Shown: positions 1,465 through 37,575, counted from the first letter of the stretch. The stretch: DNA of 37,575 nt from a virus (IMGVR_UViG_3300022218_000001:71179-108753), one strand, 5' to 3'. The notes: generated from the letters alone by a model not told the origin. Translations and numbers: made by a program.

Positions 1465-2153
1465 TGCACAAACTCAATCGGCTTTTTTGGGAAAAGTGCG
1501 AGGCCAAATATCCTGAATTTTTTCATGGTGTTGGCCGCGTCCTGGAGGTTGGCAGTTGCAACGTCAACGGATCTGTGCGTGATCACTTCAGTGATGTGGG
1601 GACGTACATTGGCGTGGACTGGAGGGCTGGGCTGGATGTAGATCTGGTTTGCCTTGCCTCACGGATGTCATTTGATGAGCGTTTCGATGTTGTTATCTCT
1701 GCATCGATGCTTGAGCATGATCCAGAGTGGCGCCTGTCGCTCGTCAATATGGTGTCGCAGTTAAAGCCGGATGGTATTTTGATGCTTTCATGGGGAGCTG
1801 CTCGAAACGCCCCGCATTCACATAGCACCGCAGTCGATGGTGAGTTCCATCCGAGGCCAGCCGGCCAGGTGATTAGCTTTCTGCAAAGCATCGGAGTGTA
1901 CGTTCATTTTTTTCGTTATGAGGCAAAGCTGCGGGTGAAAGATAAGGCAAAGCCTGTAGAAGAAGTTCACAGCAAGGGCATGGGTGAGGTTTGTCTCATT
2001 GCTTTCAAGAATCCAGATATCGCTAAAGGCCCTATAGAAGTAGACGAGCTTCTCTCTGAGGACAACATTGGATGGGAGGCCGATCCTGTCTTGCCGCAGG
2101 CTGGCCCGAAGAAGCCGCGTAGGCACCCAGCAAGGAGACGAGGAAGGAAATGA
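1464..2153 (+). CDS. Class I SAM-dependent methyltransferase
   Basis: Motif I VLEVGS, then YIGVDW, FDVVISASMLEHD and LKPDGIL. Ends in an Arg/Lys-rich tail. Confidence 0.8.
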   Translation: MHKLNRLFWEKCEAKYPEFFHGVGRVLEVGSCNVNGSVRDHFSDVGTYIGVDWRAGLDVDLVCLASRMSFDERFDVVISASMLEHDPEWRLSLVNMVSQLKPDGILMLSWGAARNAPHSHSTAVDGEFHPRPAGQVISFLQSIGVYVHFFRYEAKLRVKDKAKPVEEVHSKGMGEVCLIAFKNPDIAKGPIEVDELLSEDNIGWEADPVLPQAGPKKPRRHPARRRGRK

Positions 2154-2875
2154 CAGCACAGTTCAGGGAAATGATTGGACCCCTCCAGGGGTCATGCAGA
2201 GGGCTTCGTTGTTATATCGTGGGGACAGGGCCAACGATGGATGACGTGAATCTCTCGAAGCTAAGGGGTCAATACATCATGGCTCTTAATGGGGCTGTGT
2301 TGAAATTTACCAACCTTCGTTCTTATCCAGATGCTTGGTGGGTTTGGTATGACGCTCGAGCCTATCGTGAATTGTGGAGCCGTGTAAAAGACCAATGGCG
2401 GCGTATCCAATGTATCATCCATAAGAAGGGGATGGAGGATATGCGCTCGCATCTTGGTGCTGGTCGTTATGTGGAGTACGTCAAGGATAATTTTAGAGCC
2501 TCGAGGACTGTGGCGGAGACCGCGATTCTCCTCTGCCAGTTTCTTGGTTTCAGCGAAGTGGTGCTTGTCGGGATTGACGGGATGCAGGCGCGCGACGGGA
2601 TCCCTTATGCCTCTGGCTTTGAATGGAAGCATTGCCGGTTCATGACAGCCGGACAGCAAGAGAGCTGTCAGAAATCAAGCGCGCAGATGGTCCAAGCCTT
2701 CGAAGATCTAAAAGAGAAGCTCGCAGATCGTGGTAGGGTGCCACGAATAATTCAAACGTCGGTGGCTTATCCTGTACGCGACCAATTTGAATTCGTACCG
2801 TTTGATAAAATCGTAGAAGAAGAGGTCGTGAAAGTTGGCCCGACCAAGCCTGCAAAATCACATCCGAAGTTTTGA
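2150..2875 (+). CDS. Maf/DUF115 (MptE-like) protein, putative CMP-nonulosonate transferase #1
   Basis: CYIVGTGPTM, IMALNGAV and FLGFSEVVLVGIDG match the GxGP[ST]...N...GxD pattern of this family. ATGA overlap with the previous gene. Confidence 0.7.
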   Translation: MTAQFREMIGPLQGSCRGLRCYIVGTGPTMDDVNLSKLRGQYIMALNGAVLKFTNLRSYPDAWWVWYDARAYRELWSRVKDQWRRIQCIIHKKGMEDMRSHLGAGRYVEYVKDNFRASRTVAETAILLCQFLGFSEVVLVGIDGMQARDGIPYASGFEWKHCRFMTAGQQESCQKSSAQMVQAFEDLKEKLADRGRVPRIIQTSVAYPVRDQFEFVPFDKIVEEEVVKVGPTKPAKSHPKF

Positions 2876-3398
2876 GAAAGCTTATGCCAGTGGGTGGCGC
2901 AGTGATCCAACAGGGCATCACCGGACTATCTTTCGGCTTTCTCCGTTTTTTCGTGACCATGGTGTAGAGAGGATCCTTGACATCGGTTGTGGCCGTGGCC
3001 TTGTACTGAAGCAGCTTGCAATGGATGGTTTTGATGTTCTTGGAACGGAAGTCGTTCCTTGCCTCCTTGCAAAGGATCTAAAATGGATGTCCGCTGCTCC
3101 GACCCCAGTTCATGATATGGATATTTTTGTCGACAATACATTCGACCTTGTGCTCATGACCGATTTTTTAGACCACCTTCGTGACGAGCAGGAGGTCGAC
3201 GATGCGCTTAGCCAGGCGAGCCGCTTGGCCTCGAATGGAATTATTGTGACCTTGGGAGGGCCTTCATCTCTAAGGACCATCGATCAGCCGCGCGATTGGT
3301 GGCGTGAAAAAATCTGTGCATTCATTAAGTTTCCGGTGCGTACGAACATGACCTATGAGAGCATTGACGGGTACGCATTTTGGGAGGGAGATGAATGA
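2835..3398 (+). CDS. Class I SAM-dependent methyltransferase (paralog of 8676-9326)
   Basis: ILDIGCGRG, FDVLGTE and FDLVLMTDFLDHL. TTG start with AGAGG upstream; the start is uncertain. Confidence 0.8.
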   Translation: MARPSLQNHIRSFEKAYASGWRSDPTGHHRTIFRLSPFFRDHGVERILDIGCGRGLVLKQLAMDGFDVLGTEVVPCLLAKDLKWMSAAPTPVHDMDIFVDNTFDLVLMTDFLDHLRDEQEVDDALSQASRLASNGIIVTLGGPSSLRTIDQPRDWWREKICAFIKFPVRTNMTYESIDGYAFWEGDE

Positions 3399-4420
3399 AG
3401 ATTTGTCACTTCGTTGGTCACAGCCTTGTACGCTACACCCCAGGGCGCATTGCGACTCTCTGGGGCCGCTTCACCGAACACGAAGGACGAGCTTTTGCCT
3501 GTCGGCGCACAGGCGGTTGGCTTTTTCACGAGCCTCTCAACCCCTATGGTTTTTACTGTCCAAAACAAATGCACAAGGGGCCTCTTAAAGATTGGGTCGA
3601 AGCCGCCGATGTGCTTCACTTCCACGATGACAGCTACCCCTCAGTGCTCGAGGGGTGGCGGTGTGACCTGCGTGGCAAAGTAAAAATCTACCATGCTCAC
3701 ATTGGCAATATCCCCGATCGTTTTTTTAAGCCTCGAAGTGGGCGCCTGAAGTGGCGAGAGGATGTTAGCTACGCGGGCATTACAAATGGGTATGGGCACC
3801 TGTTCGATGAAGACGAGCGCCGAAACCCAGGAAGAAAGTGGGGCCGCTTGCCGGATGTCTTAGATCTCGACAGCCCCGTGTTTCGTCAGAGCCCGACCCT
3901 CTACCCAGACCCAAATGACAAAACGCTACGTGTGGTCTATACCTACTCAAACAACAGAGAAGATGGGAAGATTAACGCCAAAAGGCCAAAGGCGCATGCA
4001 CGTCTCTTAGTTGGTATCCCGGGGGTCCAATACATAGCTGTCTGTAATAGACCGTTCGAGGAAGCGCAGGCAATCAAGGCCTCTGCTCATGTCGTCCTTG
4101 AGGAATGCTTTACTCAATACCTCCACCTTTCGGCGCTGGAGGGGGCCGCAATGGGGAAGCCAGTTGTTACAAGCTTCAACCAAGCAACAAAGCTTGAGAC
4201 TTCAGGCGCCGTTGGCGCCCCGCTCAGTGAATGGCCATTCATCGAGGCAGGGCCAAGGACGCTGCGTAGGGTCATTGAGAAGTTGAGAGATAACCGTGAG
4301 CTACTTGAAGAATGGGGAAAGAAAGGCCAGCGGTGGATGGAAACCTATTATACTGCCCCAAGCCTTCTGGCCCGATATGAGGAGTTCTATGAGCGAGCGA
4401 GAAAAGATCAAGGCCTTTGA
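3395..4420 (+). CDS. Glycosyltransferase, GT-B/GT4-like (paralog of 64-1047)
   Basis: 341 aa. Contains AHVVLEECFTQYLHLSALEGAAMGKPVVTS...GKKGQRWMETYY. Confidence 0.7.
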   Translation: MKICHFVGHSLVRYTPGRIATLWGRFTEHEGRAFACRRTGGWLFHEPLNPYGFYCPKQMHKGPLKDWVEAADVLHFHDDSYPSVLEGWRCDLRGKVKIYHAHIGNIPDRFFKPRSGRLKWREDVSYAGITNGYGHLFDEDERRNPGRKWGRLPDVLDLDSPVFRQSPTLYPDPNDKTLRVVYTYSNNREDGKINAKRPKAHARLLVGIPGVQYIAVCNRPFEEAQAIKASAHVVLEECFTQYLHLSALEGAAMGKPVVTSFNQATKLETSGAVGAPLSEWPFIEAGPRTLRRVIEKLRDNRELLEEWGKKGQRWMETYYTAPSLLARYEEFYERARKDQGL

Positions 4421-4622
4421 TTGGTCGAAGTTAGATGAAGCGTTCAAGGCCATGCCCCCTGAAATTCGCAGTCGAATTGAAGTACCACTGAGAGCATCGA
4501 GCCCTCGTGTATTCCTTCTAACATTAAGGAATCTTCGAGACACACTCGATAATGCCATCAAGCATATGGAGGAGGTGGTTGGTGACAATCCCAGCACTGA
4601 TCTTAGCACGGGGCGGAAGTAA
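4389..4622 (+). CDS. Small hypothetical protein (77 aa, MSEREKIKAFDW...)
   Basis: ATG at 4389 follows GAGGAG and is in frame with track ORF 4296-4622. The sequence looks helical. Confidence 0.5.
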   Translation: MSEREKIKAFDWSKLDEAFKAMPPEIRSRIEVPLRASSPRVFLLTLRNLRDTLDNAIKHMEEVVGDNPSTDLSTGRK

Positions 4623-5304
4623 AGGGATCCCTGGCAAAAACCTCAAGGAGGTTGGCGGGCAAACGCTGCTCGCCCATTGTGTCAGCGTAGCCACTGCAAG
4701 CCGGCTATCTCCTGTCTTTGTGTGGAGCGACAGCCCGGACATCCGAGCCGAGGGCACAAGGATGGGAGCCAAGTGTCCACCTCGAGATGGGCGTTTCGCT
4801 ACAGATACAATTACGTCTGAAGAAAGCGTTGCGGCGTTTTTGGAAGAGCATGACCCTGGAGAAAAGTGGAAGGCCGTGGCTCTGCTTCAATGTACGACGC
4901 CGTTTCTAACTACGAAGGCGTTGGATTTGTGCGTTGAGAAATTCGAGGAGGGTGGGCGAGATGCTGTTATTACTGTAGTCGATGCTACGCAGAGATATCT
5001 TGGGTACCCACAGCGCGGAAATGGCGGCTCTGAGTTTGTTCCAATGCGTCCCTATCGCGCTCTTCGGCAAGAAGAAGCAATGTCGATGTACATGGAAAAT
5101 GGTGGGTGCTATTTAGCCAAGCGGGAGCTTTGGGTCTCTGGTCGCCGCATGGGGCGAAATAACGGAGTTGTCGTAATGCCATGGTGGGATGGTTTGGAGA
5201 TAGATGAAAAGGATGACCTTGAGGTCGCGAGGGTCTTGGCACCGCTGAGACGGGTGAGTAAGACCACGGCCGTTCGCTTCATCGATACGGAGGTGCGACC
5301 ATGA
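4582..5304 (+). CDS. neuA: CMP-N-acylneuraminate (nonulosonate) cytidylyltransferase
   Basis: Canonical ILARGGSKGIPGKN, plus LLQCTTPF, ENGGCY and EIDEKDDL. GTG at 4582 follows GGAGGAGG. Confidence 0.9.
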   Translation: MTIPALILARGGSKGIPGKNLKEVGGQTLLAHCVSVATASRLSPVFVWSDSPDIRAEGTRMGAKCPPRDGRFATDTITSEESVAAFLEEHDPGEKWKAVALLQCTTPFLTTKALDLCVEKFEEGGRDAVITVVDATQRYLGYPQRGNGGSEFVPMRPYRALRQEEAMSMYMENGGCYLAKRELWVSGRRMGRNNGVVVMPWWDGLEIDEKDDLEVARVLAPLRRVSKTTAVRFIDTEVRP

Positions 5305-5852
5305 CACATGTTGCCAGCACGCGCTATCTCGAGCTTGGGCCAGAAAAGAACAATCATACGAGGAACCGTGATCGATTCTCTCATTCTTGGCAAACAGCAG
5401 GGCTGTCTGAGAAGACACCATCGGACTGTCCGTTAGATCTCAACGGAGAATTCCCATGGCCAGACGGCCGCTTTGAGGTTGTGTACTCTTCGCACGTTTT
5501 AGAACACCTCGCCGCCCCTCGTTCTTTTCTGAAAAATTGTTTTCGAGTACTTGAGCCGCATGGGCTTATACGGATCGTTGTTCCGTCAATGCCGTTCGTT
5601 ATTGACCGATATGTCAAGGGCAAGGCCTCTCTCGATCAAGTCCTTGAGTGGGCACGGGACTATCGTCCAATGAAGCATCGGGATGGCTATGATGAAATAA
5701 AGATCGTATCTCTGCTTGAGTCGGCTGGGTTTGAGTGGGTTCGCACACTCAAGCCGAACAAGTCGATAATGCCAGAGATGAGAGATCCTTATTTTTCTAC
5801 AAGGCCAAACAAGAGCATTAGGTGTGAAGGGAGGAAGCCATGCCTAAAGTGA
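5301..5852 (+). CDS. Methyltransferase type 11-like protein
   Basis: DLNGEFPWPDGRFEVVYSSHVLEHL...CFRVLEPHGLIRIVVP. Motif I is degenerate (LELGPE). Confidence 0.75.
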   Translation: MTHVASTRYLELGPEKNNHTRNRDRFSHSWQTAGLSEKTPSDCPLDLNGEFPWPDGRFEVVYSSHVLEHLAAPRSFLKNCFRVLEPHGLIRIVVPSMPFVIDRYVKGKASLDQVLEWARDYRPMKHRDGYDEIKIVSLLESAGFEWVRTLKPNKSIMPEMRDPYFSTRPNKSIRCEGRKPCLK

Positions 5853-6697
5853 TTGCTGATATCGGAATCAACCATAACGGCGATATTTCAAAAGTCCTTG
5901 AAATGATTGATGCGGTGAAACATTGTGGTGCGGATTATGTAAAGCTCCAGAAGCGTGACATTGAGAGCTGCTACACTGAAGAAGATCTCTCCAAGCCATG
6001 CAGCTCTCCATGGGGGGCTACAGTTGGCGACAAGGTTTATGGGAGAGAGCTGGCATGGAGCGATTTTCATCTCATCGCAAATAGGTGCGACGAGCGGTCA
6101 TTGGGCTGGTCCGCTTCTTGCTTTGACTTGAAAAGCCTTGAAGAGCTTGAAACTTTATACGGTGAACGCATAGCATTTCACAAGGTCCCAAGCGCAATGG
6201 CGAAGCATGAGGCATTCCTCAAACAGGTGGCATCTTATGGCCGCCTTACTTTCATTAGCGTTGGCCTTGCGTCCAATCTTCATGAGGTCAAGACCGTTTG
6301 TCGCATATTTGAAGAGTTGTCCTGTAAGTATGTTCTAAACATCACCACTGCCCTGTACCCAACATCTCTTGCCCGCTGCAACATTGCGCGAATAGAGACG
6401 ATCAGGAATTTTCGATTTTGTGAGCTTCACCACTGTGTCGGTGTTGGGTACTCCGGGCATGAGGTCGGTCTACTTCCATCTATCGTCGCGGTTTGTTTCG
6501 GCGCAACTCATATCGAGCGGCACTTTACGTTAGATCGATCTTGGTACGGAGCAGATCAGGCCTCCAGCCTTGAGCCAGAAGGCCTTCGTCGCCTATGCCG
6601 TGACGTCTCACAGATTGAAGATATTGCTGGCAGTCCAAAGATTCAGCTCATGGGCGATGAAAAAAACCCTGTGACTTTCTTTAAGGGCACACAATGA
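5840..6697 (+). CDS. neuB: N-acetylneuraminate/nonulosonate synthase (short form, no C-terminal AFP-like domain)
   Basis: IADIGINHNGD, GADYVKLQK, GYSGHE, GATHIERHFT and DQASSLEP. 285 aa. Confidence 0.9.
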   Translation: MPKVIADIGINHNGDISKVLEMIDAVKHCGADYVKLQKRDIESCYTEEDLSKPCSSPWGATVGDKVYGRELAWSDFHLIANRCDERSLGWSASCFDLKSLEELETLYGERIAFHKVPSAMAKHEAFLKQVASYGRLTFISVGLASNLHEVKTVCRIFEELSCKYVLNITTALYPTSLARCNIARIETIRNFRFCELHHCVGVGYSGHEVGLLPSIVAVCFGATHIERHFTLDRSWYGADQASSLEPEGLRRLCRDVSQIEDIAGSPKIQLMGDEKNPVTFFKGTQ

Positions 6698-7131
6698 AGA
6701 AAAAACCTTCTTCACCTCTTGGGAATGTCTATTCAACCGCCGAGCTTAAAACAAAGCACAAGCGAGTGAGGTTTTTTCAAGTGGGGGATGAGTATCTCAT
6801 TAAGCAGGCGTGCGCTATTGCAAATAGGAGGCCTGGGTTCCAAATTCTTGGGCTACCAGAAGATATCGAAATCCTTGGTGTCTGGTATGAGCACTTCTGG
6901 AGAGCGTTCTCTTTCAAGGCGTGCTCGATGGAGTGGCCAGAGCACGACGCCTCGCTCAAGATAATCGACAGACATGAAATTGAGGTCATCGAAGCGCCAA
7001 CAGAAGAAGCGGAATTTGTACTTTGGCGCAAAATGGCAGACGCGGTCACTGCAAATCAGAAGTTAGTCCCAGCCACCGAAGCCATTGACCTTCTTAGGGG
7101 TAAGCAAGATGACAAGAAACGTACTTCTTGA
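6694..7131 (+). CDS. Hypothetical protein
   Basis: 145 aa with an ATGA overlap to neuB. No recognised motif. Confidence 0.55.
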   Translation: MKKKPSSPLGNVYSTAELKTKHKRVRFFQVGDEYLIKQACAIANRRPGFQILGLPEDIEILGVWYEHFWRAFSFKACSMEWPEHDASLKIIDRHEIEVIEAPTEEAEFVLWRKMADAVTANQKLVPATEAIDLLRGKQDDKKRTS

Positions 7132-7825
7132 AGCTCATAACTTCTGGGCTTCAAGTTCGAAGCGAACAAGAGACTTCGCTCATATCCGTGGCACTGGACG
7201 ATGGAGAGACGAAGAGGCATGGCTTCGCATCGGTCGCGGGCACCTTGAGCAGTTCTGTAGTTACTACGATGATGGCATGCAGCCGCTTCGATCTCTCCTT
7301 GAATGGGGGCCAGGAGGAGGATCTAACATCGTCGCTTTCTCCAGGGTTTTTGAGGAGGCCACAGTCGTAGACATTTCCATCGACGCTCTTCGGTCAGCGG
7401 TTATGGCTGTGAAAGATCTTTGCCCAGGGTTTGAAACAAACGCATTCCCACTCACGATCGATGCTCCGAGCGCAGCATTAAAGCTCGGTGCTAATTCATT
7501 CGATTTTTTGATCTGCACTGCTGTTATCCAACACATGCCATCTGTCGAACATTTTATTGAGACCGCAGGCATTTGGAACAAGCTTTTGCGTCCAGGTGCG
7601 TATGGTCTTGTTCAGTTCCGAACCAGGGTCGGCTGCCAAGCGTACCGAAAAAAGAAAAAAGAGAACGGAGGTGCATACAAACACAATGTCAGTCGTTGGA
7701 TGATGCTTCGACAAAAAGAATTCATTCCGATCGTAGAAGGCGCTGGGTTTGAAGTCTTGGATATCGTGAACGGAGAAGAGAGGACAGCGACAGGGTATGC
7801 TTATGCCTGGCTGAAGAACAAATGA
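7109..7825 (+). CDS. Class I SAM-dependent methyltransferase
   Basis: LLEWGPGGGS, VVDIS, FDFLICTAVIQHM and LLRPGAYG. ATG at 7109 preferred over TTG at 7085. Confidence 0.8.
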   Translation: MTRNVLLEAHNFWASSSKRTRDFAHIRGTGRWRDEEAWLRIGRGHLEQFCSYYDDGMQPLRSLLEWGPGGGSNIVAFSRVFEEATVVDISIDALRSAVMAVKDLCPGFETNAFPLTIDAPSAALKLGANSFDFLICTAVIQHMPSVEHFIETAGIWNKLLRPGAYGLVQFRTRVGCQAYRKKKKENGGAYKHNVSRWMMLRQKEFIPIVEGAGFEVLDIVNGEERTATGYAYAWLKNK

Positions 7826-8679
7826 AGCTGCACCGCATGGCGTTTGAGTACTGGGAAGATGAACACACGGCCCTGCTACGCAGCGAACGTCGCGCTGGGT
7901 CTGGGTTCGCACAGGAAGATGACCGATGGGCCAATGACCCAGAGTGGTATTGTCGCCAGCATTTTCACTACGACAAAGATGGTAAAGGACCGTACTTTCT
8001 CAATCGCAGATGCAAAGCCCTCCTGAAACAGCATGGGCCTTTTCGTGGTCGTTACCGAGACGCAGATGAACTGGAGGACACGGCCATCGGCCGAACGGTC
8101 TATCTCTTCTGCCCAGGGCCATCGCTGTCTTGCGTTCCGCCAGATGCCTTTCGCGACGAGATCTCCATGGCAGTTAATTCTGCCGGGCTCCGCATGACAC
8201 CGACCTTCTGGGTGATGGCTGAGAGTGCCTACGCCTTATGGCTCATGAGCGAGCCACAAAAACACCAGCCAGACTGCTGTGTTATTTCGACAGCTCGAGT
8301 CGCTGTTGTGCTCAGGGCGAAAGAACGCGCAGCTCGCCGAGATTTTTTTCGTCGTGTCTTTGTTGCCCGGTGGGAGGAAGAGCTGATCGTCCCAGCTCGG
8401 GTACCGGCGGTGTCTGTCTTTAATGCTCTTGTCGGAGCATGGCAGATGGGCGCTACCAAGTGCGTTGTTTTTGGCTTAGATCTTTCTCGCCCTGACGGAC
8501 AGCCATATGTGGACGGTGTCCAGTTTACGAAAGCGGGGGCTACGAACCCTTTCGATGACCAGGTCAAAGCGTTGCGCCAATTCAAACTCCCAGGCTTCGA
8601 GGTAGTTAACTGCTCCCCTTACAGCAGAGAACTTCTACCAAACTTCACAGCGGTCGATGCATCGGAGTTTTTATCATGA
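7822..8679 (+). CDS. Maf/DUF115 (MptE-like) protein, putative CMP-nonulosonate transferase #2
   Basis: VYLFCPGPSL, SMAVNSAG and WQMGATKCVVFGLDL, with an extra ~85-aa N-terminal region. Confidence 0.65.
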   Translation: MKLHRMAFEYWEDEHTALLRSERRAGSGFAQEDDRWANDPEWYCRQHFHYDKDGKGPYFLNRRCKALLKQHGPFRGRYRDADELEDTAIGRTVYLFCPGPSLSCVPPDAFRDEISMAVNSAGLRMTPTFWVMAESAYALWLMSEPQKHQPDCCVISTARVAVVLRAKERAARRDFFRRVFVARWEEELIVPARVPAVSVFNALVGAWQMGATKCVVFGLDLSRPDGQPYVDGVQFTKAGATNPFDDQVKALRQFKLPGFEVVNCSPYSRELLPNFTAVDASEFLS

Positions 8680-9326
8680 AGGAGCATACAGCCAAGAGCC
8701 TTGTTGATATTTATGACAAGCTCTACGGGATGCGGGGCGAATGGAAGCATCCGACAAAACGCAGCAATGGCAAGCCCATCACCATTGGCCGTTACGGTGG
8801 TCCGACAACAAGGAATGCACGATTTGTCAATTTTATTGAAGCTAACATTCCGAAGGAGGCCAGTGTCCATGATGCAGGATGCGGTCGTGGACATCTCATC
8901 TGTAAGCTTGGCGAGCTTGGATACAATGTCTCTGGCTCTGACTGTGCGCCTTCACTCTTTTTCCAGGAATTGCGAGATCTCCCGGCACAGCTTGTAACCT
9001 ATGAGGATCTCAGGGTATTCGGTCAGGACAGATTCAATGTCGTTGTCTCCAATGATGTTTTAGAGCACCTTGTTAATGAAGATGCCGTTGACAAAGCCAT
9101 CGCAGATTTGGCTTTCATTGCAAAGGACTGGCTTTTGGTATCTGTCGGGACTAAGCCAGCAAAGAACTTCCCATCAGTGAATAGAAGTCTTGGTATTGAT
9201 GACCTTCACAGAGTGAAGAGGGCCGGTGGCTGGTGGAGAGATAGACTCAATAAGCATATGGAAGAAATCGAACATCATCGGTCGAGAAATAATTGGTTCC
9301 AATTTGGAAGGGTACGCCGGTCATGA
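8676..9326 (+). CDS. Class I SAM-dependent methyltransferase (paralog of 2835-3398)
   Basis: VHDAGCGRG, VSGSD and FNVVVSNDVLEHL. Confidence 0.8.
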   Translation: MKEHTAKSLVDIYDKLYGMRGEWKHPTKRSNGKPITIGRYGGPTTRNARFVNFIEANIPKEASVHDAGCGRGHLICKLGELGYNVSGSDCAPSLFFQELRDLPAQLVTYEDLRVFGQDRFNVVVSNDVLEHLVNEDAVDKAIADLAFIAKDWLLVSVGTKPAKNFPSVNRSLGIDDLHRVKRAGGWWRDRLNKHMEEIEHHRSRNNWFQFGRVRRS

Positions 9327-10225
9327 AAAGCGTAATTTTTGGTGTTGGATTTATCGGAACTGCGACTGGGCGGAAGCTCAAAGAGGAAGGGCATGAGGTC
9401 GTGGGGGCTGACAATTTTGCGGTCAGACCTGAGAAGGAACCAGGTTTTCCCACATGGAAGATTGACATTTGCGACCTAAACAGAATCGAGGACTTTCTTC
9501 GCTACCACAGGCCTGGTGTGATTTATTGGTTCCCCGCTCGCCAGGGCTACAGTTTAGATCATTCAGAGTTTGCACGAGTGCAGGTTCTTGGATCTTACAC
9601 GCTCTTTGAAGCTATCGATAAGATTAAGGACTACCTGCCGGGGATGATCGTCCTTGCTTCATCGCAGGCGATCTATAGGCCGATGGTCAATGTGACAGAG
9701 GAGGGCGTAAAAGACCCACCGTCAGTCTACGGGTTCTCAAAGCTTCAACAGGAACGAGCTTTCCGTTGGTTCTGCGACAAGCGCAACATCCCGATAGTGG
9801 CCATGCGGTATTCCATCGTCCTCGGCCCTGGCCAGGCGCTTCAGTCAACTGAAAGCGGGCTGATTCGTAATTGGTACCATAAATGGAAGGCCGGTGAAGC
9901 GCCTGAGATTTATGGGAACGGAAAGCAGGCCAGGGACTTTGTTCATGTCGATGATGTGGTGGTTGCGAACCTCAAAGCAGCGGCATTTTGCAGATCTTGC
10001 GAGTTCAATATTGGAGGCGCCACGAGGAAAATTAGCGAGATGGCGAAGGCCTTCCATGAGATGACTGGCTGTAGCGAGCCAGTTGTCACCGGGGAAGAGA
10101 AAAGGCCGGGTGGTGAGTATTCTATGACTTCCAGCTCTAAGAGGGCTGAGAGGCTTCTTGGCTGGGTGGCCGTCAAGAGCCCCGCATGTTGTATTCGGGA
10201 GTTTCTTGACAATACGGGGATTTAA
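9323..10225 (+). CDS. NAD-dependent nucleotide-sugar epimerase/dehydratase (extended SDR)
   Basis: Rossmann IFGVGFIG, ASSQAIY, catalytic YGFSK (YxxxK) and GKQARDFVHVDDVV. ATG at 9323 overlaps the upstream stop. Confidence 0.85.
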   Translation: MKSVIFGVGFIGTATGRKLKEEGHEVVGADNFAVRPEKEPGFPTWKIDICDLNRIEDFLRYHRPGVIYWFPARQGYSLDHSEFARVQVLGSYTLFEAIDKIKDYLPGMIVLASSQAIYRPMVNVTEEGVKDPPSVYGFSKLQQERAFRWFCDKRNIPIVAMRYSIVLGPGQALQSTESGLIRNWYHKWKAGEAPEIYGNGKQARDFVHVDDVVVANLKAAAFCRSCEFNIGGATRKISEMAKAFHEMTGCSEPVVTGEEKRPGGEYSMTSSSKRAERLLGWVAVKSPACCIREFLDNTGI

Positions 10226-10285
10226 GACGAAACTGGGGGCGACTGATACGTTGGCTCCCGGGTAATCTTCGATCGTTTCAGCTTT

Positions 10286-10350
10286 GGTCGCATCGACCCC
10301 CCGCCTGACTACCCGGGAAGGTGACGTGTCGTGTCGGTGCGACCTTTTTT
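10286..10350 (+). terminator. Putative intrinsic terminator/attenuator with a large loop
   Basis: 12-bp stem 10286-10297/10333-10344 (one G-U pair) followed directly by T6 at 10345-10350. The loop is 35 nt. Confidence 0.5.
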
Positions 10351-10373
10351 GTTTCTCAATAGGAGTGAAGACC

Positions 10374-10703
10374 ATGAAGCGAAGAGACATGATCAAGTCC
10401 GGGCTCTTGGGTCTTGTTGGCTGTCTTCTACCAAAGCGCCAGGTGACATCGATGGAGGTAACTGCATCGCCGGAAGCCTCAGCCACACGTTCAACAACCC
10501 CACCGCCAAGGGAGATAAATACCCAGGACTACACTGGCTGGCGAAGAACAGAGATTATCCGGGCTGACGGCACTCACTCAATTTCTTACGATGAGGTTCC
10601 GGAGCTGGAGCCAAGTATGAATGAAGTGTTTGGCGATCTTGACGAGATGATTGAGCGCAACCGTGCGCGCTGGACAAGTCGGATTGTAGGCCGTCAGTCA
10701 TGA
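10374..10703 (+). CDS. Small protein with twin-arginine-like signal and lipobox
   Basis: AGGAG RBS at 10361. MKRRDMIKSGLLGLVGC gives an RR motif, a hydrophobic stretch and LVGC. Confidence 0.6.
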   Translation: MKRRDMIKSGLLGLVGCLLPKRQVTSMEVTASPEASATRSTTPPPREINTQDYTGWRRTEIIRADGTHSISYDEVPELEPSMNEVFGDLDEMIERNRARWTSRIVGRQS

Positions 10704-11434
10704 AGAAGTGGCAGCCGGCGATGAGGGACGGTCTCTGCGCAGCTTGTCCGAAGCATTCAACAATCGCGGGTGGTACGGTGGGTGGCGATTGTCCTTATTG
10801 TGGAGCTGCTCTCTACCTTTCAGATACGCTTGGAGCGCCAGTAAAAAACGACCCCTTTGATTTCTCTCGGCTTCCTACGTACCGAGACCCCATGTTCGAT
10901 CTTGCACCGAAGGCAAAGGTGTTCGTGGAGCTTGGCACCCAGAGGGGATTCACCGCCTATCGCGCAGCTCTCCATTTGCCTAACGCAACAATCCATTGCG
11001 TAGATCCATGGGCGAACTATGACGGCAAGCCGAACTATGTCGGCGACATGATTCTATGCTGGGAGATTTTCAAGGAACTCCACAAAGACAATCTCGCCAG
11101 TGGGAAGGTAGTCTCGCACAAGGGGTTCTCGTGGGATGTATCTGAAGAGTTCCACGAGCCAGTCGATCTTCTTTGGATCGATGGTGACCATACCTTTATT
11201 GGGGCTTTCCGAGATCTTTGTTTGTGGTTCCCAAAGGTCTCGGTTGGAGGAGTTGTCGTTGGCGATAATTATGAAATGCACGATGTGAGATTGGCCGTTG
11301 ACCGTTTCTGCCAGGTGCGTGGGATTATGCCAACAATTGGTAGGGCGCTCGGGAAATCTACGAAGAGAGAACAGTTCTGGTTCACGAAAAGGAGTGAGGA
11401 CGATGGTGAAGAAAAAACCCCTCTCGATTTATAA
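10700..11434 (+). CDS. Methyltransferase (Methyltransf_24-like) with N-terminal Zn ribbon
   Basis: CAAC-x14-CPYC, then VFVELGTQRG, HCVDPW, LLWIDGDHT and GGVVVGDNY. Confidence 0.8.
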   Translation: MKKWQPAMRDGLCAACPKHSTIAGGTVGGDCPYCGAALYLSDTLGAPVKNDPFDFSRLPTYRDPMFDLAPKAKVFVELGTQRGFTAYRAALHLPNATIHCVDPWANYDGKPNYVGDMILCWEIFKELHKDNLASGKVVSHKGFSWDVSEEFHEPVDLLWIDGDHTFIGAFRDLCLWFPKVSVGGVVVGDNYEMHDVRLAVDRFCQVRGIMPTIGRALGKSTKREQFWFTKRSEDDGEEKTPLDL

Positions 11435-13157
11435 GCCAAAGGTAGCGATCCTGACATCCCTGGTTGACTTTTCCCCTGCATACAGCCTCAGTGGGATAAT
11501 ACTTGACCAGGCTCGAGCACTGAAGCGGCACGGGTACGATTACGATCTCCTGTGTCTGAAAAGTTTCAATTCGAATGACAAGGATTTGATCGAGCGAGAG
11601 GGGCTCAGCATCAAATACATACTTCCGCAAACCCTCCTGGTTGATTATGGGGCAGAGCAAAAAGCGGATGAAGACCACGTAGATAAAAAGACTGGGAAAA
11701 AGATCGCTGGCTTTGAAACGCAGGTCGCCGTCCACTTCGAAGGAGACAAAGAAAAAGGCTGGGTGGGGTACAGAGAAGCCCTTGAGCCTTACGATACGAT
11801 CATCGACCATGACTTGATGTTCTTATCTTGGCACCTCCCTCAGAATGCTGCTATCCGAAGGTGTATCGATCTGTGGCCGGAGAAGAACTGGCTTCACTGG
11901 GTCCACTCTGGTCCATCCAATGCGCCTCGTAATTTATGCTATCCCTCAACACTCAGGTTCTCCGCTGCGCAGCACTCTACCTATGTTTACCTGAATTGCG
12001 CCCAGGCTCATGAGTATGCGCTGATGATCTCAGCTCAGAACACAGCCGTGCGAACAGTGTATAATCCAAAGGACGTCCGTGATGTTTGGAATTTCTCGGA
12101 ACTGGCGCAAGATCTTATCAGTCGTTACGGGCTCATGGATCATCAAATCCTCGAGGTGTACCCATTCTCAACTCCCCGATGGCATGACAAAGGAGTCCGC
12201 CATCTTATGCGGATCTTTGGTTTTTGGAAAAAGATGAAAATTAGGGCGAAGCTTGTGCTTGTCAATGCCCATTGCAACAGCCCTCGTGACCAGGCGGACA
12301 TTGACGGGATTGAAGCTTACGCCAAAGTCTGTGGGCTGGAGCTTGATCACGATGTCATTTTAACATCACGATTCGCAGATGAGACTGACCAGAAAACTCT
12401 CCGCTACACCGTCCCATTCAGGGCTGTCCGAGAGCTTGTGATGCTTTCAAACATATTTATTTTCCCATCGGTATCTGAGTGCTGCTCCTTGATTCAAGCC
12501 GAGGCGAGCATGAGCGGGAAGTTCATGGTTCTTAATCGTGACTTCAGCCCGATGCTTGAGTTCTGCACAGAGGGGGTGATGACTTACGAGTTCACCATCA
12601 ACGATCCAAATGCGAACCCTGAATACTACCAATGCTTGGCTCGCGAGATTTGGGCAAACTTCCAAGCGGAATCCTCCATCATGAACCGGACGAATGCAAT
12701 CACCCGTGTCTACAACCGAGACTGGATCTTCGAGAACCAATTTGAGCCGTTACTTTATATCGGGTTCGATAAAAGAAAAAAGCCAGCCGCCAAACCGGCA
12801 CCTCGAGAAGTTCTCAGGCCAGAGTTCGTCAATGACGAAATGGGGCACAAAACAGCGCCCCAGCCAGACCTATCAATTGAGACCCCTGACGGTACGACCA
12901 TTCCGCTAAAGCTTGTCATGGCGACAGAGACGACGCCACCTGAATCAATCATCGCCGAAGAATCTCCCCCTGGGGCGGACGGTGAAGAGCCAAACTACGA
13001 AGACCCATGGGACGGGATGGAATGCTCGATATTTGGGTCATGCACGTCTGAGCAGAAAGTCCAATGCTATGAGCAGGCTGGGCACTGTCTCGTCCTTGAT
13101 GAGATCGACCATCGCGAGCGTGTCGCAGAGGCCCGGGCGAACGCTGGGAAAAAATGA
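11403..13157 (+). CDS. Large GT-B/GT4-like glycosyltransferase with acidic, Cys-containing C-terminal extension
   Basis: ATG at 11403 follows GAGGA. Contains VYNPKD, KGVRHL, ELVMLSNIFIFPSVSECCSLIQAEASMSGK (GT4 ExxxxxxxE-type motif). Confidence 0.75.
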   Translation: MVKKKPLSIYKPKVAILTSLVDFSPAYSLSGIILDQARALKRHGYDYDLLCLKSFNSNDKDLIEREGLSIKYILPQTLLVDYGAEQKADEDHVDKKTGKKIAGFETQVAVHFEGDKEKGWVGYREALEPYDTIIDHDLMFLSWHLPQNAAIRRCIDLWPEKNWLHWVHSGPSNAPRNLCYPSTLRFSAAQHSTYVYLNCAQAHEYALMISAQNTAVRTVYNPKDVRDVWNFSELAQDLISRYGLMDHQILEVYPFSTPRWHDKGVRHLMRIFGFWKKMKIRAKLVLVNAHCNSPRDQADIDGIEAYAKVCGLELDHDVILTSRFADETDQKTLRYTVPFRAVRELVMLSNIFIFPSVSECCSLIQAEASMSGKFMVLNRDFSPMLEFCTEGVMTYEFTINDPNANPEYYQCLAREIWANFQAESSIMNRTNAITRVYNRDWIFENQFEPLLYIGFDKRKKPAAKPAPREVLRPEFVNDEMGHKTAPQPDLSIETPDGTTIPLKLVMATETTPPESIIAEESPPGADGEEPNYEDPWDGMECSIFGSCTSEQKVQCYEQAGHCLVLDEIDHRERVAEARANAGKK

Positions 13158-13225
13158 AAAAAAAGAAGGTTGCCGCTCGGGAAGCGGCCAACATCCGAAA
13201 ATTTGGCAAAGGAGCCATGCGCTGA
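13154..13225 (+). CDS. Possible 23-aa basic micro-ORF (MKKKKVAAREAANIRKFGKGAMR)
   Basis: ATGA-coupled to the upstream stop and fills the gap before the next RBS. It is below the ORF-track cutoff. Confidence 0.3.
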   Translation: MKKKKVAAREAANIRKFGKGAMR

Positions 13226-13248
13226 GTCAAAACATAGGAGATAGGACC

Positions 13249-13851
13249 ATGAAGAAGACTGTATTTTTTGATCTTGAGACTGGAGGACTAACGCCAGGCG
13301 TTCATCCGATCATTCAGTTTGCAGGCATCGCTGTAGACGAGAAGTTCAAGGTACAAGAAGAGCTTGAGATAAAGCTTCAATTCGACATTGGTGAATGCAC
13401 CGCTGAGGCCTTGGCTGTAAATTCATTCGACCCTGAAGTCTGGGAGAAAGAATCCTTTTCTCAGATCAGTGGCATGAAGGTGATTTCTGCATTTCTAAAG
13501 CGTCATGCCACCGTAAAGTTAATCAGCAAGCGTGGGAGTCCGTACTACGTTGCTCTTATGGCTGGTCACAATGCGTCGAACTTTGATGGTCCCATGCTCC
13601 AGGCGTGGTACAAGAAAGCCGACGAGTTCCTGCCTGGCTACTTCAGGGTGCTTTGCACGTCGCAGCTTGCTCAGTGGCATTTCTACAATCATCCGAATCC
13701 GCCGGAAAATATGAAGCTTGGGACGTTATGCAGGTACTTTGGCGTTCATCTTTCAGAGCAAGCGGCTCATGACGCTCTGGCGGATGTGCGAGCGAACGTC
13801 AAGCTTGCGCGCGTGCTTCTGGAGGGACGTACAATTTCGGAGCCTGTCTAA
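13249..13851 (+). CDS. DEDDh 3'-5' exonuclease (DnaQ-like)
   Basis: ExoI FFDLETGG, ExoII GHNASNFDGPML and ExoIII AHDALADV. AGGAG RBS precedes ATG 13249. Confidence 0.9.
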   Translation: MKKTVFFDLETGGLTPGVHPIIQFAGIAVDEKFKVQEELEIKLQFDIGECTAEALAVNSFDPEVWEKESFSQISGMKVISAFLKRHATVKLISKRGSPYYVALMAGHNASNFDGPMLQAWYKKADEFLPGYFRVLCTSQLAQWHFYNHPNPPENMKLGTLCRYFGVHLSEQAAHDALADVRANVKLARVLLEGRTISEPV

Positions 13852-14480
13852 TGAGTAGTGAATTCAATGCGGTTTACCACCACAGGCTGCGTTATTTCTT
13901 AACGCCGCAGTTTGATATATATCGAAACATTCGGAGATTCGTTGCGTCAAAAGAGCCGGACTGGGCGATCGACGAATTTCTCTCTGTGCTTGATTATGGG
14001 TGTGGGAATGGAGTCGGCAGTCTGCTGTTAAAACATGACGGCTGGGAGATCGTAGGCATCGACTCCGACGAAGAGGCCATCGCGTTTGCTGCCGATTCTT
14101 GGGGGCACTTGGTTGAATTCAAGCATGAAGACTGGACCGCCCGTTCACACTTAGAATCATCGGACGCAGCCCGCTACCAGAGGCGTTACGACGTGGTTGT
14201 CTGCCTTGAAGTTATTGAGCATGTTGCGGATCCGCTCTTACTTCTTCAGTCTCTTCAGAATGCTTGCAAGACAAAGGCTAATGTTTTTATTTCAACGCTA
14301 AACCATAACAGCCAATACCGAAAGAACAGAGGGCATGTTGGTAAGTTCCATGTTCAAGATTTCCGGTTCCTGGTCGAAAAAGTCTTCGGCGATGTTCGAA
14401 TCTTCAATTATGACTTCAGTGAAGAACTCAGCGACGATTCGACTTTAACCCCAATGCTTGCTATCTGCCAAGGAGGCTGA
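13851..14480 (+). CDS. Class I SAM-dependent methyltransferase
   Basis: VLDYGCGNG, IVGIDSD and YDVVVCLEVIEHV. Confidence 0.85.
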   Translation: MSSEFNAVYHHRLRYFLTPQFDIYRNIRRFVASKEPDWAIDEFLSVLDYGCGNGVGSLLLKHDGWEIVGIDSDEEAIAFAADSWGHLVEFKHEDWTARSHLESSDAARYQRRYDVVVCLEVIEHVADPLLLLQSLQNACKTKANVFISTLNHNSQYRKNRGHVGKFHVQDFRFLVEKVFGDVRIFNYDFSEELSDDSTLTPMLAICQGG

Positions 14481-14482
14481 GT

Positions 14483-15406
14483 GTGAGGACTGGGTTCATC
14501 AGGCTTACAGATGAGGATGTCTCCTTTGCCCGCAAGGTCGCAGGCCGCCGACACAACGAGGCAATTGATCAAGGGCGTGAAGACAAGCATGGACTCAAGG
14601 CCAGGGGCCGAGGTGAGATGCAGGAGCATGACTTAGGGGCACTTGGGGAATTGGCTGTTGCTCGCCTCTGGGGCGTTGAGTGGCCTGCACACATCAATAC
14701 ATTCAAGTCTATTCCGGACCTTGCAGAATGGGAAATAAGAACGCGGAGCCGTCTTTATTACGAGCTTCTCATTCGGCCAGACGATCCGGACGATCGGCCC
14801 TTCGTTCTTGTCCACCTTGTCTCGTACCCCCATGCCTTTAATGTAACTGGATGGATGACTGCTGGTGATGCAAAGCAAAAGGAGTGGAAGAAAGAACATG
14901 GAGGTAGGCCTCCTGCCTACTTCCCTCCAAACTCCGAGCTACGTGACTTCGATCCGTATGATGCAAGCCACGCCATTGGACAGGCGATCAGTGACGCCTA
15001 TATCTTGAGCTATGAAGAACGCAAAGACTTGGACGACGAAGAACGTGAGCGTGATGAGCATGAAAAGTTCGCAATATCGCTTAGGGTCCAGGAAGAAGAT
15101 GATGCTCGTCGCTGGAAAGAATTTATCGACAAGCATGGCCCACTTCTTGCCCGAACAAAAGTGGAGTATTTTTCTGAAGGACATCCCTACGCAGGTTTTT
15201 CCAAGACCACTCATACAACTCCTGACCCGCTTCGAGCACAGAAGTGTATTGAGGAGGCTGAGGAATTTTGCAGAAAGCGAGATGCTTGGATTGAGCAATT
15301 TGTCGGGCCTATTCATCCAAAGCGTCGAAAGTGGCGTTCACAGAGGCAGAAGGCTGCACTTATGGACCAAGAGGCGCAGCTCTCCGGAAAGCGCAAAAGT
15401 AGATGA
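14483..15406 (+). CDS. Phage protein, putative PD-(D/E)XK-like nuclease N-terminal domain plus charged C-terminal extension
   Basis: GALGELAV...PDLAEWEIRT pattern (helix-Glu, PD, ExR). GTG start. Confidence 0.45.
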   Translation: MRTGFIRLTDEDVSFARKVAGRRHNEAIDQGREDKHGLKARGRGEMQEHDLGALGELAVARLWGVEWPAHINTFKSIPDLAEWEIRTRSRLYYELLIRPDDPDDRPFVLVHLVSYPHAFNVTGWMTAGDAKQKEWKKEHGGRPPAYFPPNSELRDFDPYDASHAIGQAISDAYILSYEERKDLDDEERERDEHEKFAISLRVQEEDDARRWKEFIDKHGPLLARTKVEYFSEGHPYAGFSKTTHTTPDPLRAQKCIEEAEEFCRKRDAWIEQFVGPIHPKRRKWRSQRQKAALMDQEAQLSGKRKSR

Positions 15407-16149
15407 CACATGAGGTTCGAAACGTTTACGACCTTGAGGGCTTGGAAAAAGACCGGCGTCTCTGGATCGTAGCTCCTGGGCCAACTTCTTTAGCTTTAAA
15501 GAAATGGGCGCATCTCATGGTTGGGGAGACTGTCATTGCGCTGAATAGTGCGCTTGAAATTATTCCAAAGCCCACTTACTGGCTTTATGCAGACAAGCGG
15601 TTTTCTTGGCTTTATGGCCATGAGCTTCATGGCGATAAGGGCAGGATGAAGCCAGGGCTTTCAACTCCGCATCGAGTCATTGTCCCTCACCATCAGACAA
15701 AAAAGATGCAGCATTACTATGCTGGAGGGGAATTATATTCATTTCATTTTCAGATGGAAATTTCTCGCAGACTGCCGGTAAAGGACCGCGAGGGAAAACC
15801 GTTTTGGTATGCTCCAACCTACCGTTTTATTCCAGGCCATGCTTCTGTAGCCTCAACTGCCTGCAGCATAGCTTGCTTGATGCGTCCACGGGTCGCGGTG
15901 CTTGTCGGGGTCGATTTTGCCATGCCAGACGATGTTTACTACCATCCAGAGGTGAAAAAAAACTTAGGTCCAACAATGAAGACACGCGCTCTTGATAGTG
16001 GTTTATCTTGGTTTCGAGGGGCTTTGACTAAGCGCGGTGGAATCTGGCCTGGGCTAAGGCTTATTACCACATCTGTACATTTGGCAAGTAGGGCACCTGT
16101 TGTTCATCGGAATTGGGAAGAAATAGAGAATGGAGATGACATGCCATGA
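15403..16149 (+). CDS. Maf/DUF115 (MptE-like) protein, putative CMP-nonulosonate transferase #3
   Basis: LWIVAPGPTS, VIALNSAL, YWLYADKRF and AVLVGVDF. Confidence 0.65.
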   Translation: MTHEVRNVYDLEGLEKDRRLWIVAPGPTSLALKKWAHLMVGETVIALNSALEIIPKPTYWLYADKRFSWLYGHELHGDKGRMKPGLSTPHRVIVPHHQTKKMQHYYAGGELYSFHFQMEISRRLPVKDREGKPFWYAPTYRFIPGHASVASTACSIACLMRPRVAVLVGVDFAMPDDVYYHPEVKKNLGPTMKTRALDSGLSWFRGALTKRGGIWPGLRLITTSVHLASRAPVVHRNWEEIENGDDMP

Positions 16150-36968: not shown

Positions 36969-37575
36969 ATGGCAACTGATCAGAAAATTGTCAGTGTCCG
37001 TGCTTCAGTAGCTATTGAGTGGATCGATGGCACTGAGAACGGCAACGCAGATGCTCGAGTCTACTTAGCATCAAGCTGGCCAAACAACAACCTCAAGGCC
37101 GGGCAGACAATTGTCATCTCCGGTACGTCAGACTTCAATGGGACCTTTGAGATTAAGTCTGTCGCATCGCAGAGTGAGTTTGTCATTGTCCATTCCGAGA
37201 ATAACCAAGAGGCGACGACAGACGGAACTGCCGGGGGCGACTACTCAAGCCTTGAGGATGCAGAGTCGAATGAACGCGCAAACCTGGTAACCTCCGATCA
37301 AGATATCATTTTTGAGATCTACAATGATTGGCAGGACGGCCTAACAGAGACGACGCAGATTCGATTCGATACGGCCAATTGGACGACCGATCGTGATCAC
37401 TGGATCATTATTCGCTCACCGGCAACAGATGTTGGCAGGCCTTGGATTGAGCATGACGGCCCAACGCTCCGCATGAATGGGGTGACGTTCCCCATTGGTG
37501 GCGAAGAGCATGGGTTTCTTCATTTTGATGATGATCTCGATTTCTTCCTCCAAGACTTTGAAATTGACGGCGATG
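36969..37575 (+). CDS. Partial ORF (runs off the window end), paralog of the second domain of the giant S/T protein; putative tail fibre/receptor-binding protein
   Basis: Not in the track. My translation is MATDQKIVSVRASVAIEWIDG...NNNLKAGQTIVISGTSDFNG...TAGGDYSSLEDAESNERANL...EIYNDW...FDTANWTTD...GVTFP, open to 37575. Confidence 0.75.
   Translation, partial: MATDQKIVSVRASVAIEWIDGTENGNADARVYLASSWPNNNLKAGQTIVISGTSDFNGTFEIKSVASQSEFVIVHSENNQEATTDGTAGGDYSSLEDAESNERANLVTSDQDIIFEIYNDWQDGLTETTQIRFDTANWTTDRDHWIIIRSPATDVGRPWIEHDGPTLRMNGVTFPIGGEEHGFLHFDDDLDFFLQDFEIDGD

Follow-up and report, generated by a model that had tools for sequence, protein, structure and literature searches.

DUF115-fold paralogs and nonulosonate genes in a phage late operon: candidate enzymes for a sugar-coated virion

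What would a phage do with several proteins of the DUF115 fold, carried beside genes for making and activating a nonulosonic sugar? The question is raised by the stretch of DNA analysed here (the window, 37,575 nucleotides), which comprises bases 71,179-108,753, the last 37.6 kb, of the 108,753-bp IMG/VR virus record IMGVR_UViG_3300022218_000001, rated complete by CheckV. Coordinates are window positions unless marked as genome positions. An earlier note on this DNA had described three Maf/DUF115 proteins plus NeuA and NeuB as a flagellin-type kit for nonulosonate transfer. To our knowledge, Maf enzymes are the only known bacterial route that places sialic-acid-like sugars directly on serine or threonine (Ser/Thr) residues of proteins.

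The three open reading frames (ORFs) in question are real, ancient and diverged paralogs of the DUF115 (Maf-core) fold. Judging from sequences and structure models, we think it reasonably probable that they act as soluble, single-domain transferases of this fold for nonulosonic sugars activated with cytidine monophosphate (CMP), fed by the phage's own NeuB and NeuA and with a fibre-like protein as acceptor. Probably, then, the phage sugar-coats part of its own particle.

Three ancient paralogs of one fold

The three proteins are encoded on the plus strand, as follows.

2150-2875, + strand: paralog 1, a single-domain DUF115/MptE-like protein of 241 amino acids (aa) with GTGPT, ALN, GID and Tyr153; Pfam MptE-like, 21 bits
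7822-8679, + strand: paralog 2, a DUF115-fold protein of 285 aa with CPGPS, AVN, GLD and Tyr229; assigned with a structure model
15403-16149, + strand: paralog 3, a DUF115-fold protein of 248 aa with APGPT, ALN, GVD and Tyr179/180; assigned with a structure model

The motif sets that the earlier note had reported do lie in these real ORFs. In paralog 1, GTGPT begins at residue 25, followed by ALN at about 45-47 and GID at 141-143; in paralog 2, which has an N-terminal extension of about 85 aa, CPGPS stands at 97, AVN at 117-119 and GLD at 218-220; and in paralog 3, APGPT stands at 24, ALN at 46-48 and GVD at 169-171. When the motifs GxGP[ST], [AV][LV]N and G[ILV]D were sought in this order with a regular expression, 3 of the 167 stop-to-stop frames of at least 80 aa matched, exactly the three named ORFs, and none of 200 residue shuffles did.

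Are the three related to each other? Their identity is only about 20%, and pairwise BLASTP gives marginal scores (E 5e-5 to 1e-3, about 20-30% identity over parts). Orthologue families from metagenomic phage contigs, which hold 6, 28 and 8 proteins for paralogs 1, 2 and 3 with each own ORF included, align with one another in hhalign at 97.0-97.7% probability (E 9e-11 to 1.7e-12) over about 190-200 columns; family 1 matches families 2 and 3 at 97% probability (E 6e-11 and 9e-11), and the motifs stay in register throughout. PF01973, the Pfam family of MptE-like proteins, is found in four of five paralog 1 orthologues in precomputed tables. An exhaustive profile search among 1.84 billion representative proteins returned 46 relatives of the paralog 3 family, and 22 of the 32 that were aligned match PF01973 (best E 4.9e-10). 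Paralog 2 is tied to the superfamily solely through hhalign and structure; it also matches phrog_4603, labelled 'alpha-2,3-sialyltransferase', at E 3.7e-4. Profile comparisons, Pfam matches among orthologues and structure thus agree with the proposed membership of all three ORFs in the DUF115/MptE-like (PF01973) superfamily.

The Maf core and its look-alikes

Models of paralogs 2 and 3 were built by AlphaFold2 from the family alignments (predicted local distance difference test, pLDDT, 92.4 and 96.2). The earlier note had suggested such a structural comparison, and for both models the best solved match is the Maf glycosyltransferase of Magnetospirillum magneticum (5MU5), more precisely its central domain: paralog 2 aligns with Z 14.5 and a root-mean-square deviation (rmsd) of 3.0 over 196 residues to chain positions 246-511, and paralog 3 with Z 16.2 and rmsd 3.5 over 202 residues to positions 257-513. 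The scores of the other solved structures are these.

MptE pterin kinase 8SD5: Z 10.3 (paralog 2), 11.5 (paralog 3)
SteA: Z 8.9 (paralog 2), 11.2 (paralog 3)
GT42 sialyltransferases CstII / CstI: Z 9.0 / 8.8 (paralog 2), 10.0 / 10.2 (paralog 3)
GT29 sialyltransferases: Z 8.2-9.2 (paralog 2), 7.6-8.3 (paralog 3)
Thiamine pyrophosphokinases: Z 6.7-7.7 (paralog 2), about 7-8 (paralog 3)
Next unrelated folds: Z about 4 (paralog 2), about 4-5 (paralog 3)

The first 30-35 solved matches all belong to Maf, MptE, SteA, the thiamine pyrophosphokinases or GT29/GT42, after which Z falls to about 4-5. Both models contain the Rossmann-like variant of the GT-A fold that is common to Maf, MptE, GT42 and GT29, and the likeness to GT42/GT29 folds that had been pointed out earlier is there, at Z of about 8-10. 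In Swiss-Prot the model that matches best is that of WaaZ, a probable transferase of Kdo (3-deoxy-D-manno-oct-2-ulosonic acid), with a template modelling (TM) score of 0.51 for paralog 2 and 0.62 for paralog 3; next come MptE kinases, DUF115 proteins of Treponema and sialyltransferases of eukaryotes. The nearest shapes in the ESM Atlas are clusters that consist to 92-100% of PF01973 proteins, including 'motility associated factor glycosyltransferase'. These shape neighbours include DUF115 domains fused to GT2 enzymes, TagF-type glycerophosphotransferases and methyltransferases, several of them in phages, and such fusions to glycan enzymes point to glycan work.

Sequence profiles lead to the same small circle of proteins. 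Searched against all PDB sequences, a profile of 53 sequences found at E of 10 or below only MptE, CstII/CstI, Maf 5MU5 and the Pasteurella sialyltransferase 9C08, with 5MU5 in eighth rank (E 0.01) and profile positions 30-173 aligned to its residues 273-420. CstII matches in the PDB profile searches are weak (E 0.004-0.04); PDB sequence searches with the long relatives P0076 and P0072 gave no 5MU5 match, and the GT42 family PF06002 (CST-I) has no match in the genome, a model that was likewise silent in control genomes. Across the 53 sequences the motif Asn never varies, nor do Gly and Asp in GxD or a Tyr some 9-10 residues further on. Going by the profile alignment's coordinates, the invariant GxD Asp (D143, D220 and D171 in the three paralogs) lands at about Maf D415, which a passage of a Maf preprint (bioRxiv 10.1101/2020.06.03.131540, citing Sulzenbacher et al.) names together with E324 as essential for activity. 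The acidic residue that follows a conserved Trp (D68, E134, D64) is itself conserved and, by its spacing, a candidate for the counterpart of E324.

Could the proteins be pyrophosphokinases akin to MptE or thiamine pyrophosphokinase, or SteA-like regulators, that act on a small molecule? The very name of PF01973 comes from the MptE kinase, 8SD5 and SteA score well in structure, and 8SD5 is the best PDB sequence match of the family profiles (E 2e-4 to 1e-3). That sequence match, however, is limited to two shared motifs, and the Maf core stands clearly higher in structure, 4-5 Z units above 8SD5. The earlier note had named structures that match MptE kinases with an intact ATP site as a refutation of its reading; in overall fold, the models side with Maf. 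The surroundings bear on the same question: the earlier note had stated that pterin-pathway genes are missing, and in a scan of 62 ORFs, 42 in the window and 20 upstream, no pterin- or folate-pathway Pfam family was seen, while the neighbours are sugar enzymes. Nine kinase paralogs, the number found in the whole genome (see below), would moreover lack obvious substrates. Sugar transfer is favoured because NeuA and NeuB lie between paralogs 1 and 2, pterin families are absent from the ORFs scanned and relatives are fused to glycan enzymes; we consider the kinase explanation very improbable. BFVD holds 23 viral proteins matching at E of 0.001 or below, mostly from uncultured tailed phages with some from giant viruses, whose named members are automatically annotated as 'MptE-like', and the ESM Atlas holds several all-viral clusters. 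The DUF115 domain is therefore not unique to the present phage, and 'pterin kinase' is probably the wrong name for the viral copies. The giant viruses that share the fold include ChoanoV1 and Pyramimonas orientalis virus, and in some viral clusters the domain is fused to a methyltransferase or a GT2. Our literature search found no paper discussing the DUF115 domain in phages.

A closer competitor to direct attachment holds that the enzymes are CMP-ulosonate transferases working on glycan acceptors only, where they cap, branch or polymerise, while GT2 and GT-B enzymes start the glycan on protein and no Ser/Thr is sialylated directly. The length of the phage proteins, 241-285 aa, matches that of WaaZ (283 aa), their best Swiss-Prot structural match; the domains that flank the core in Maf are absent, the operon contains one GT2 plus two GT-B candidates, and nine paralogs fit a glycan with several kinds of linkage. 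Against this, no solved structure comes nearer than the Maf core, which leads by the same 4-5 Z units, and Maf enzymes have been shown to place N-acetylneuraminic acid (Neu5Ac) or Kdo straight onto Ser/Thr (bioRxiv 10.1101/2020.06.03.131540). The lists of invariant columns of the three families, which have no residue-level superposition behind them, contain no invariant His downstream of the GxD Asp. In CstII the catalytic His is His188; with no invariant His in those lists, a base of the CstII type appears unlikely here. On balance, a role confined to glycan acceptors seems to us possible but doubtful.

A glycan island in a late structural module

Every credible gene of the window lies on the plus strand. 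A P22-type coat gene precedes the window in the virus record; within the window, the three-paralog span is followed by a Phage_min_cap2 gene, by a gene whose size (1206 aa) is that of a tape measure and by genes of the distal tail. This confirms that the locus belongs to a phage. The structural module found no relative by blastn among 50,697 deposited phage records, and hence no cultured one. Around the three paralogs, the following genes make up the part of the locus that concerns us.

1464-2153, + strand: S-adenosylmethionine (SAM) methyltransferase; Pfam Methyltransf_11/12/23/24/25 matches
2835-3398, 5301-5852, 7085-7825, 8676-9326, 10700-11434 and 13851-14480: other SAM methyltransferases, with matches to the same Pfam families
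3395-4420, + strand: candidate GT-B (GT1-like) glycosyltransferase, 341 aa; an ESM Atlas lead with no Pfam match
4552-5304, + strand: NeuA-type CMP-nonulosonate synthetase, 250 aa; CTP_transf_3, 62 bits
5840-6697, + strand: NeuB-type nonulosonate synthase, short form, 285 aa; Pfam NeuB, 163 bits
9293-10225, + strand: sugar epimerase/dehydratase of the short-chain dehydrogenase/reductase (SDR) type, start perhaps at 9323; Pfam Epimerase 116 bits, GDP_Man_Dehyd 79 bits
11403-13157, + strand: candidate GT4-like GT-B glycosyltransferase, 584 aa; an ESM Atlas lead with no Pfam match
13249-13851, + strand: RNase_T/DnaQ-type exonuclease domain gene, start picked by Shine-Dalgarno context; Pfam RNase_T, 42.6 bits
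17037-18398, + strand: GT2 glycosyltransferase, 453 aa, two genes 5' of the giant Ser/Thr protein; Glycos_transf_2, 47 bits
18861-23600, + strand: 1579-aa Ser/Thr-tract protein, the proposed acceptor and virion fibre, judged by composition, paralogy and position in relatives

These genes belong to a larger island that stretches between the coat gene and the giant gene, at about 59.2-89.6 kb of the genome (about 30 kb, plus strand). It is set in the late structural module, in the same direction, with the coat gene before it and the genes for head completion and tail after it. Its content was understated by the earlier note: besides further glycosyltransferases (the GT2 and a Glyco_trans_1_2 protein) it encodes a nucleotidyltransferase (NTP-transferase), a sugar kinase of the GHMP type, a sulfotransferase and about 20 SAM methyltransferases, 13 of them Pfam-supported upstream of window position 1464 and at least seven in the three-paralog span. 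For the two GT-B candidates, ESM Atlas features give leads only: 3395-4420 reaches 0.98 with GT1-like clusters, of which many are viral, and 11403-13157 scores 0.98 to Glycos_transf_1 clusters, with Atlas-model TM scores of 0.66/0.88. Midway through the island stands the RNase_T/DnaQ-type gene, at roughly the place where two relatives have a GT2 gene of 287-289 aa instead.

The number of copies also grows with the view. Three is right for the window, but a jackhmmer search within the genome, seeded with paralog 1, converges on nine DUF115 paralogs among all genome ORFs, at genome positions 9337, 42767 (minus strand), 43980 (minus strand), 64351, 65782, 69621, 73328, 79000 and 86581, the last three being the ORFs of the window. 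The 53-sequence profile recovers the same nine, a result that is partly circular as the nine are in the profile. Six of the nine lie in the island. Far from it, a reverse-strand operon at genome 41,647-44,651 (L006:3648-6652) combines two DUF115 paralogs with a DegT-type aminotransferase and contains an ORF with a weak sulfotransferase match.

Which sugar might these enzymes use? NeuA and NeuB stand between paralogs 1 and 2, so that the clustering with genes for a nonulosonate synthase and a CMP-nonulosonate synthetase known from Maf systems is present. The identities proposed for the two are borne out by their Pfam scores and by their best solved matches, which are CMP-Neu5Ac synthetases for NeuA (1QWJ, E 5e-18; 1EYR) and sialic or pseudaminic acid synthases for NeuB (6NCS, E 2e-23; the PseI 8H2C, E 1e-19; the NeuB 1XUZ). 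The NeuB ORF, the sole NeuB of the genome, matches only positions 3-269 of the NeuB model, which has 329 positions, and the C-terminal part of the model has no counterpart. This short form is kept in relatives (281-297 aa), and NeuB is followed by a 145-aa ORF (6694-7131) that matches no family and has a 146-aa counterpart in at least one relative. The SDR protein shows weak similarity to dTDP-glucose 4,6-dehydratase, GalE and LegB, and the gene for the DegT aminotransferase lies at about 41.6-42.8 kb of the genome, on the minus strand.

The most conspicuous neighbour is the giant protein encoded at 18861-23600. Its 1579 residues are 23% Ser and 18% Thr, with three Ser/Thr-Arg/Lys tracts built of units such as STTK, STTR and SSSV, and the gene contains a 132-bp tandem array of four copies that match at 90%. 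By inspection, it has no obvious N-terminal signal sequence. Two of its domains, residues 241-432 and 735-1003, resemble the products of the last two genes of the tail module, 36969-37574 (40% identity, E 3e-33) and 34732-36561 (36%, E 3e-34), respectively. Since these globular domains are paralogous to tail genes, the protein is plausibly a virion fibre. It is also the likely acceptor. One of the two distal tail genes encodes a propeller domain of the SdiA-regulated type.

Relatives of the locus were compared, each found through a DUF115 orthologue whose identity is given.

IMG/VR contig, 48.5 kb, 74%: compared from the paralog 3 orthologue downstream; the giant Ser/Thr-tract protein follows as expected
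Logan contig, 42.7 kb, about 50%: methyltransferases, NeuA, NeuB, paralog 2, SDR, a 580-630-aa gene, paralog 3, GT2 and giant Ser/Thr-tract protein
JGI/ENA contig, 90 kb, 48%: gene order of the Logan contig, with giant Ser/Thr-tract protein
'Candidatus Latescibacterota' chromosome CP070677.1, a metagenome-assembled genome (MAG), 38%: NeuA, NeuB, paralog 2, SDR and GT2 in order

The GT2 gene is kept at the equivalent position in relatives, as are a counterpart of similar length to 3395-4420 and counterparts of 11403-13157 (612-627 aa, and 579 aa in the prophage). Giant Ser/Thr-tract proteins occur at the equivalent position in the three relatives inspected there, which have 48-74% identity (L012:14311-18807, L013:13288-19704 and L014:13439-18526). 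In distant relatives the tracts persist with Arg/Lys replaced by Ala or Tyr, in units of the STTASSSY and STTASTTA types; what is conserved is therefore Ser and Thr, not the basic residues. The N-terminal globular domain of the giant protein is swapped among relatives, and by eye the start of the L013 protein resembles a beta-helix.

The chromosomal relative adds a clue to the host. It occupies 1,955,943-2,011,909 (L015) of the 4.3-Mb MAG chromosome, with a coat gene 69% identical to that of the phage, and all seven DUF115 matches of the chromosome fall within about 52 kb, beside the coat gene. The element is likely a prophage, and the match suggests that a prophage state exists. This related, integrated element would suit a kit that modifies the host's lipopolysaccharide (LPS), capsule, S-layer, flagellin or pili in lysogenic conversion or superinfection exclusion, and phage glycosyltransferases that alter host serotype are well known (see PMC12619734 and its reference 44). 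The island, however, is part of the late structural module, co-directional with the genes for coat, head completion and tail on either side; it is co-conserved with the Ser/Thr-tract fibre protein; and its roughly 30 kb far exceed known conversion modules. Nor were membrane proteins, a flippase or a polymerase seen: in a crude Kyte-Doolittle hydropathy scan (flagging threshold at least 1.6), no convincing membrane segment emerged among 42 island proteins, which fits a soluble cytoplasmic pathway and not an exported polysaccharide. Taken together, modification of the host is improbable. Four of five flagged peaks in that scan fall on DUF115 paralogs, where membrane segments were rejected, the peak being the conserved core helix-strand that precedes GxD; the flag was also raised for the proteins at genome 62979 and 87497. 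A role of the island in DNA hypermodification is likewise unlikely, given the late structural setting, the Ser/Thr-tract protein and the fact that no base-modification families were seen.

The proposed coat and known systems

How might the pieces work together? In the scheme that we favour, the DUF115 enzymes, with their sialyltransferase-like variant of the GT-A fold, would transfer a CMP-activated nonulosonic sugar made by the phage NeuB and NeuA to the Ser/Thr tracts of the fibre-like protein, which would receive its glycans in the cytoplasm, ahead of virion assembly. A share of the paralogs may link the sugar directly to Ser/Thr as Maf does, and others may cap or extend glycans begun by the GT2 and candidate GT-B enzymes, in the manner of WaaZ or CstII. 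Methyltransferases and the sulfotransferase would then decorate the glycan. The analysis shows the fold, the homology, the conserved motif residues, the NeuA and NeuB assignments and the conservation of both the gene order and the Ser/Thr-tract protein; which donor and acceptor are used, how the paralogs share the work and what biological purpose the coat would have, we infer.

Several results weigh against this scheme. In the Pfam scan, the MptE-like matches of paralogs 1 and 3 (21.0 and 17.0 bits) fall below the cut-off of 34.6, paralog 2 has no match, and no other domain was detected in the three; with direct Pfam support this weak, homology rests on profile comparisons, Pfam matches in the orthologue families and structure. 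The GxGPS, N, GxD and Tyr elements also occur in the MptE kinase and in CstII according to hidden Markov model (HMM) alignments, and motifs shared with a kinase do not separate transferase from kinase. The E324 equivalent is placed by motif spacing, without a residue-level alignment. The phage proteins lack the Maf_flag10_N and C-terminal Maf domains and align to residues of about 246-513 of 5MU5 only. On the donor side, NeuB scores 156 bits to NeuB_NnaB and 132 bits to PseI and NeuA 79 bits to PseF (TIGR03584), all below the equivalog cut-offs, and a 2-epimerase of the NeuC/LegG type was not found in the phage genome. These gaps suggest that the precursor comes in part from the host, and nonulosonate synthesis probably needs host precursors. 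Finally, the island is linked to the Ser/Thr protein by adjacency and co-conservation only.

Among known systems, Maf is the closest in fold. The phage proteins have the central DUF115/PF01973 catalytic fold in common with Maf of 5MU5 and also of Clostridium botulinum and Geobacillus kaustophilus; like Maf, they would be cytoplasmic without membrane anchors, they cluster with donor genes of the NeuB/NeuA type, they come as several paralogs, as do the maf genes of Campylobacter jejuni, and their presumed acceptor is Ser/Thr-rich. Maf proteins, in contrast, have about 600-670 aa and three domains, whereas the phage proteins are single domains of 241-285 aa with 9-17% sequence identity to 5MU5. 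The label 'Maf' therefore holds for the core fold and fails for the three-domain architecture. 'Flagellin-type' fits less well: the acceptor of Maf is flagellin, that of the phage is presumably a fibre whose Ser/Thr tracts are of low complexity, the scan of window and island ORFs gave no flagellin family, and the genes belong to a late operon of a phage, with no flagellar locus. To cap or extend a glycan is as plausible a role as to link sugar directly to Ser/Thr, WaaZ being the closest single-domain look-alike.

WaaZ (RfaZ, GT73), the probable Kdo III transferase of the LPS core in E. coli and Salmonella, is a single domain of about 270-283 aa like the phage proteins, and its donor by annotation is a CMP-ulosonic acid. 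It differs in acting on a lipid-linked glycan and shares 13-16% identity with them, and the synthase next to the phage enzymes is of the NeuB type, for nine-carbon sugars, and not a Kdo8P synthase as for Kdo. The GT42 enzymes CstII and CstI of Campylobacter jejuni (1RO7, 2P2V) have the same motif order of GxGPS, N, GxD and Tyr in a related fold, which scores below Maf at Z 8-10. On present evidence, from sequences and models, the phage proteins would work like Maf or WaaZ without being full members of the Maf family.

What would such a system add? With some reserve, and at somewhat less than even confidence, we propose an autonomous, cytoplasmic, mucin-type O-glycosylation in a tailed phage of an uncultured phylum, in which nine minimal Maf-core paralogs would join with GT2 and GT-B enzymes to build a nonulosonate-containing, heavily methylated and sulfated glycan brush on the Ser/Thr tracts of the 1579-aa fibre. 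If this is true, the phage spends more than a quarter of its genome on coating a fibre, and core-only enzymes of 241-285 aa, nine paralogs and a simple, repetitive candidate acceptor would offer a minimal system for donor and acceptor specificity, with a use in glyco-engineering. The known mycobacteriophage system reportedly employs one or two conventional glycosyltransferases, acting on the C-termini of capsid and tail-tube proteins, and is said to have no nonulosonate synthesis, DUF115 enzymes, methylation and sulfation battery or mucin-like acceptor. Phage virion glycosylation, which in mycobacteriophages relies on those conventional enzymes, would thus be extended to nonulosonate, methylated and sulfated glycans. 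In mycobacteriophages (Freeman et al. 2023, PMC10527164, cited in PMC12619734) and in giant viruses, glycosyltransferase genes of the virus stand beside structural genes and the virus's own virion proteins are glycosylated; here it is the genes that share this arrangement. The glycan brush they might build would be comparable to the fibril glycosylation of giant viruses, and would be of a kind not described for phages.

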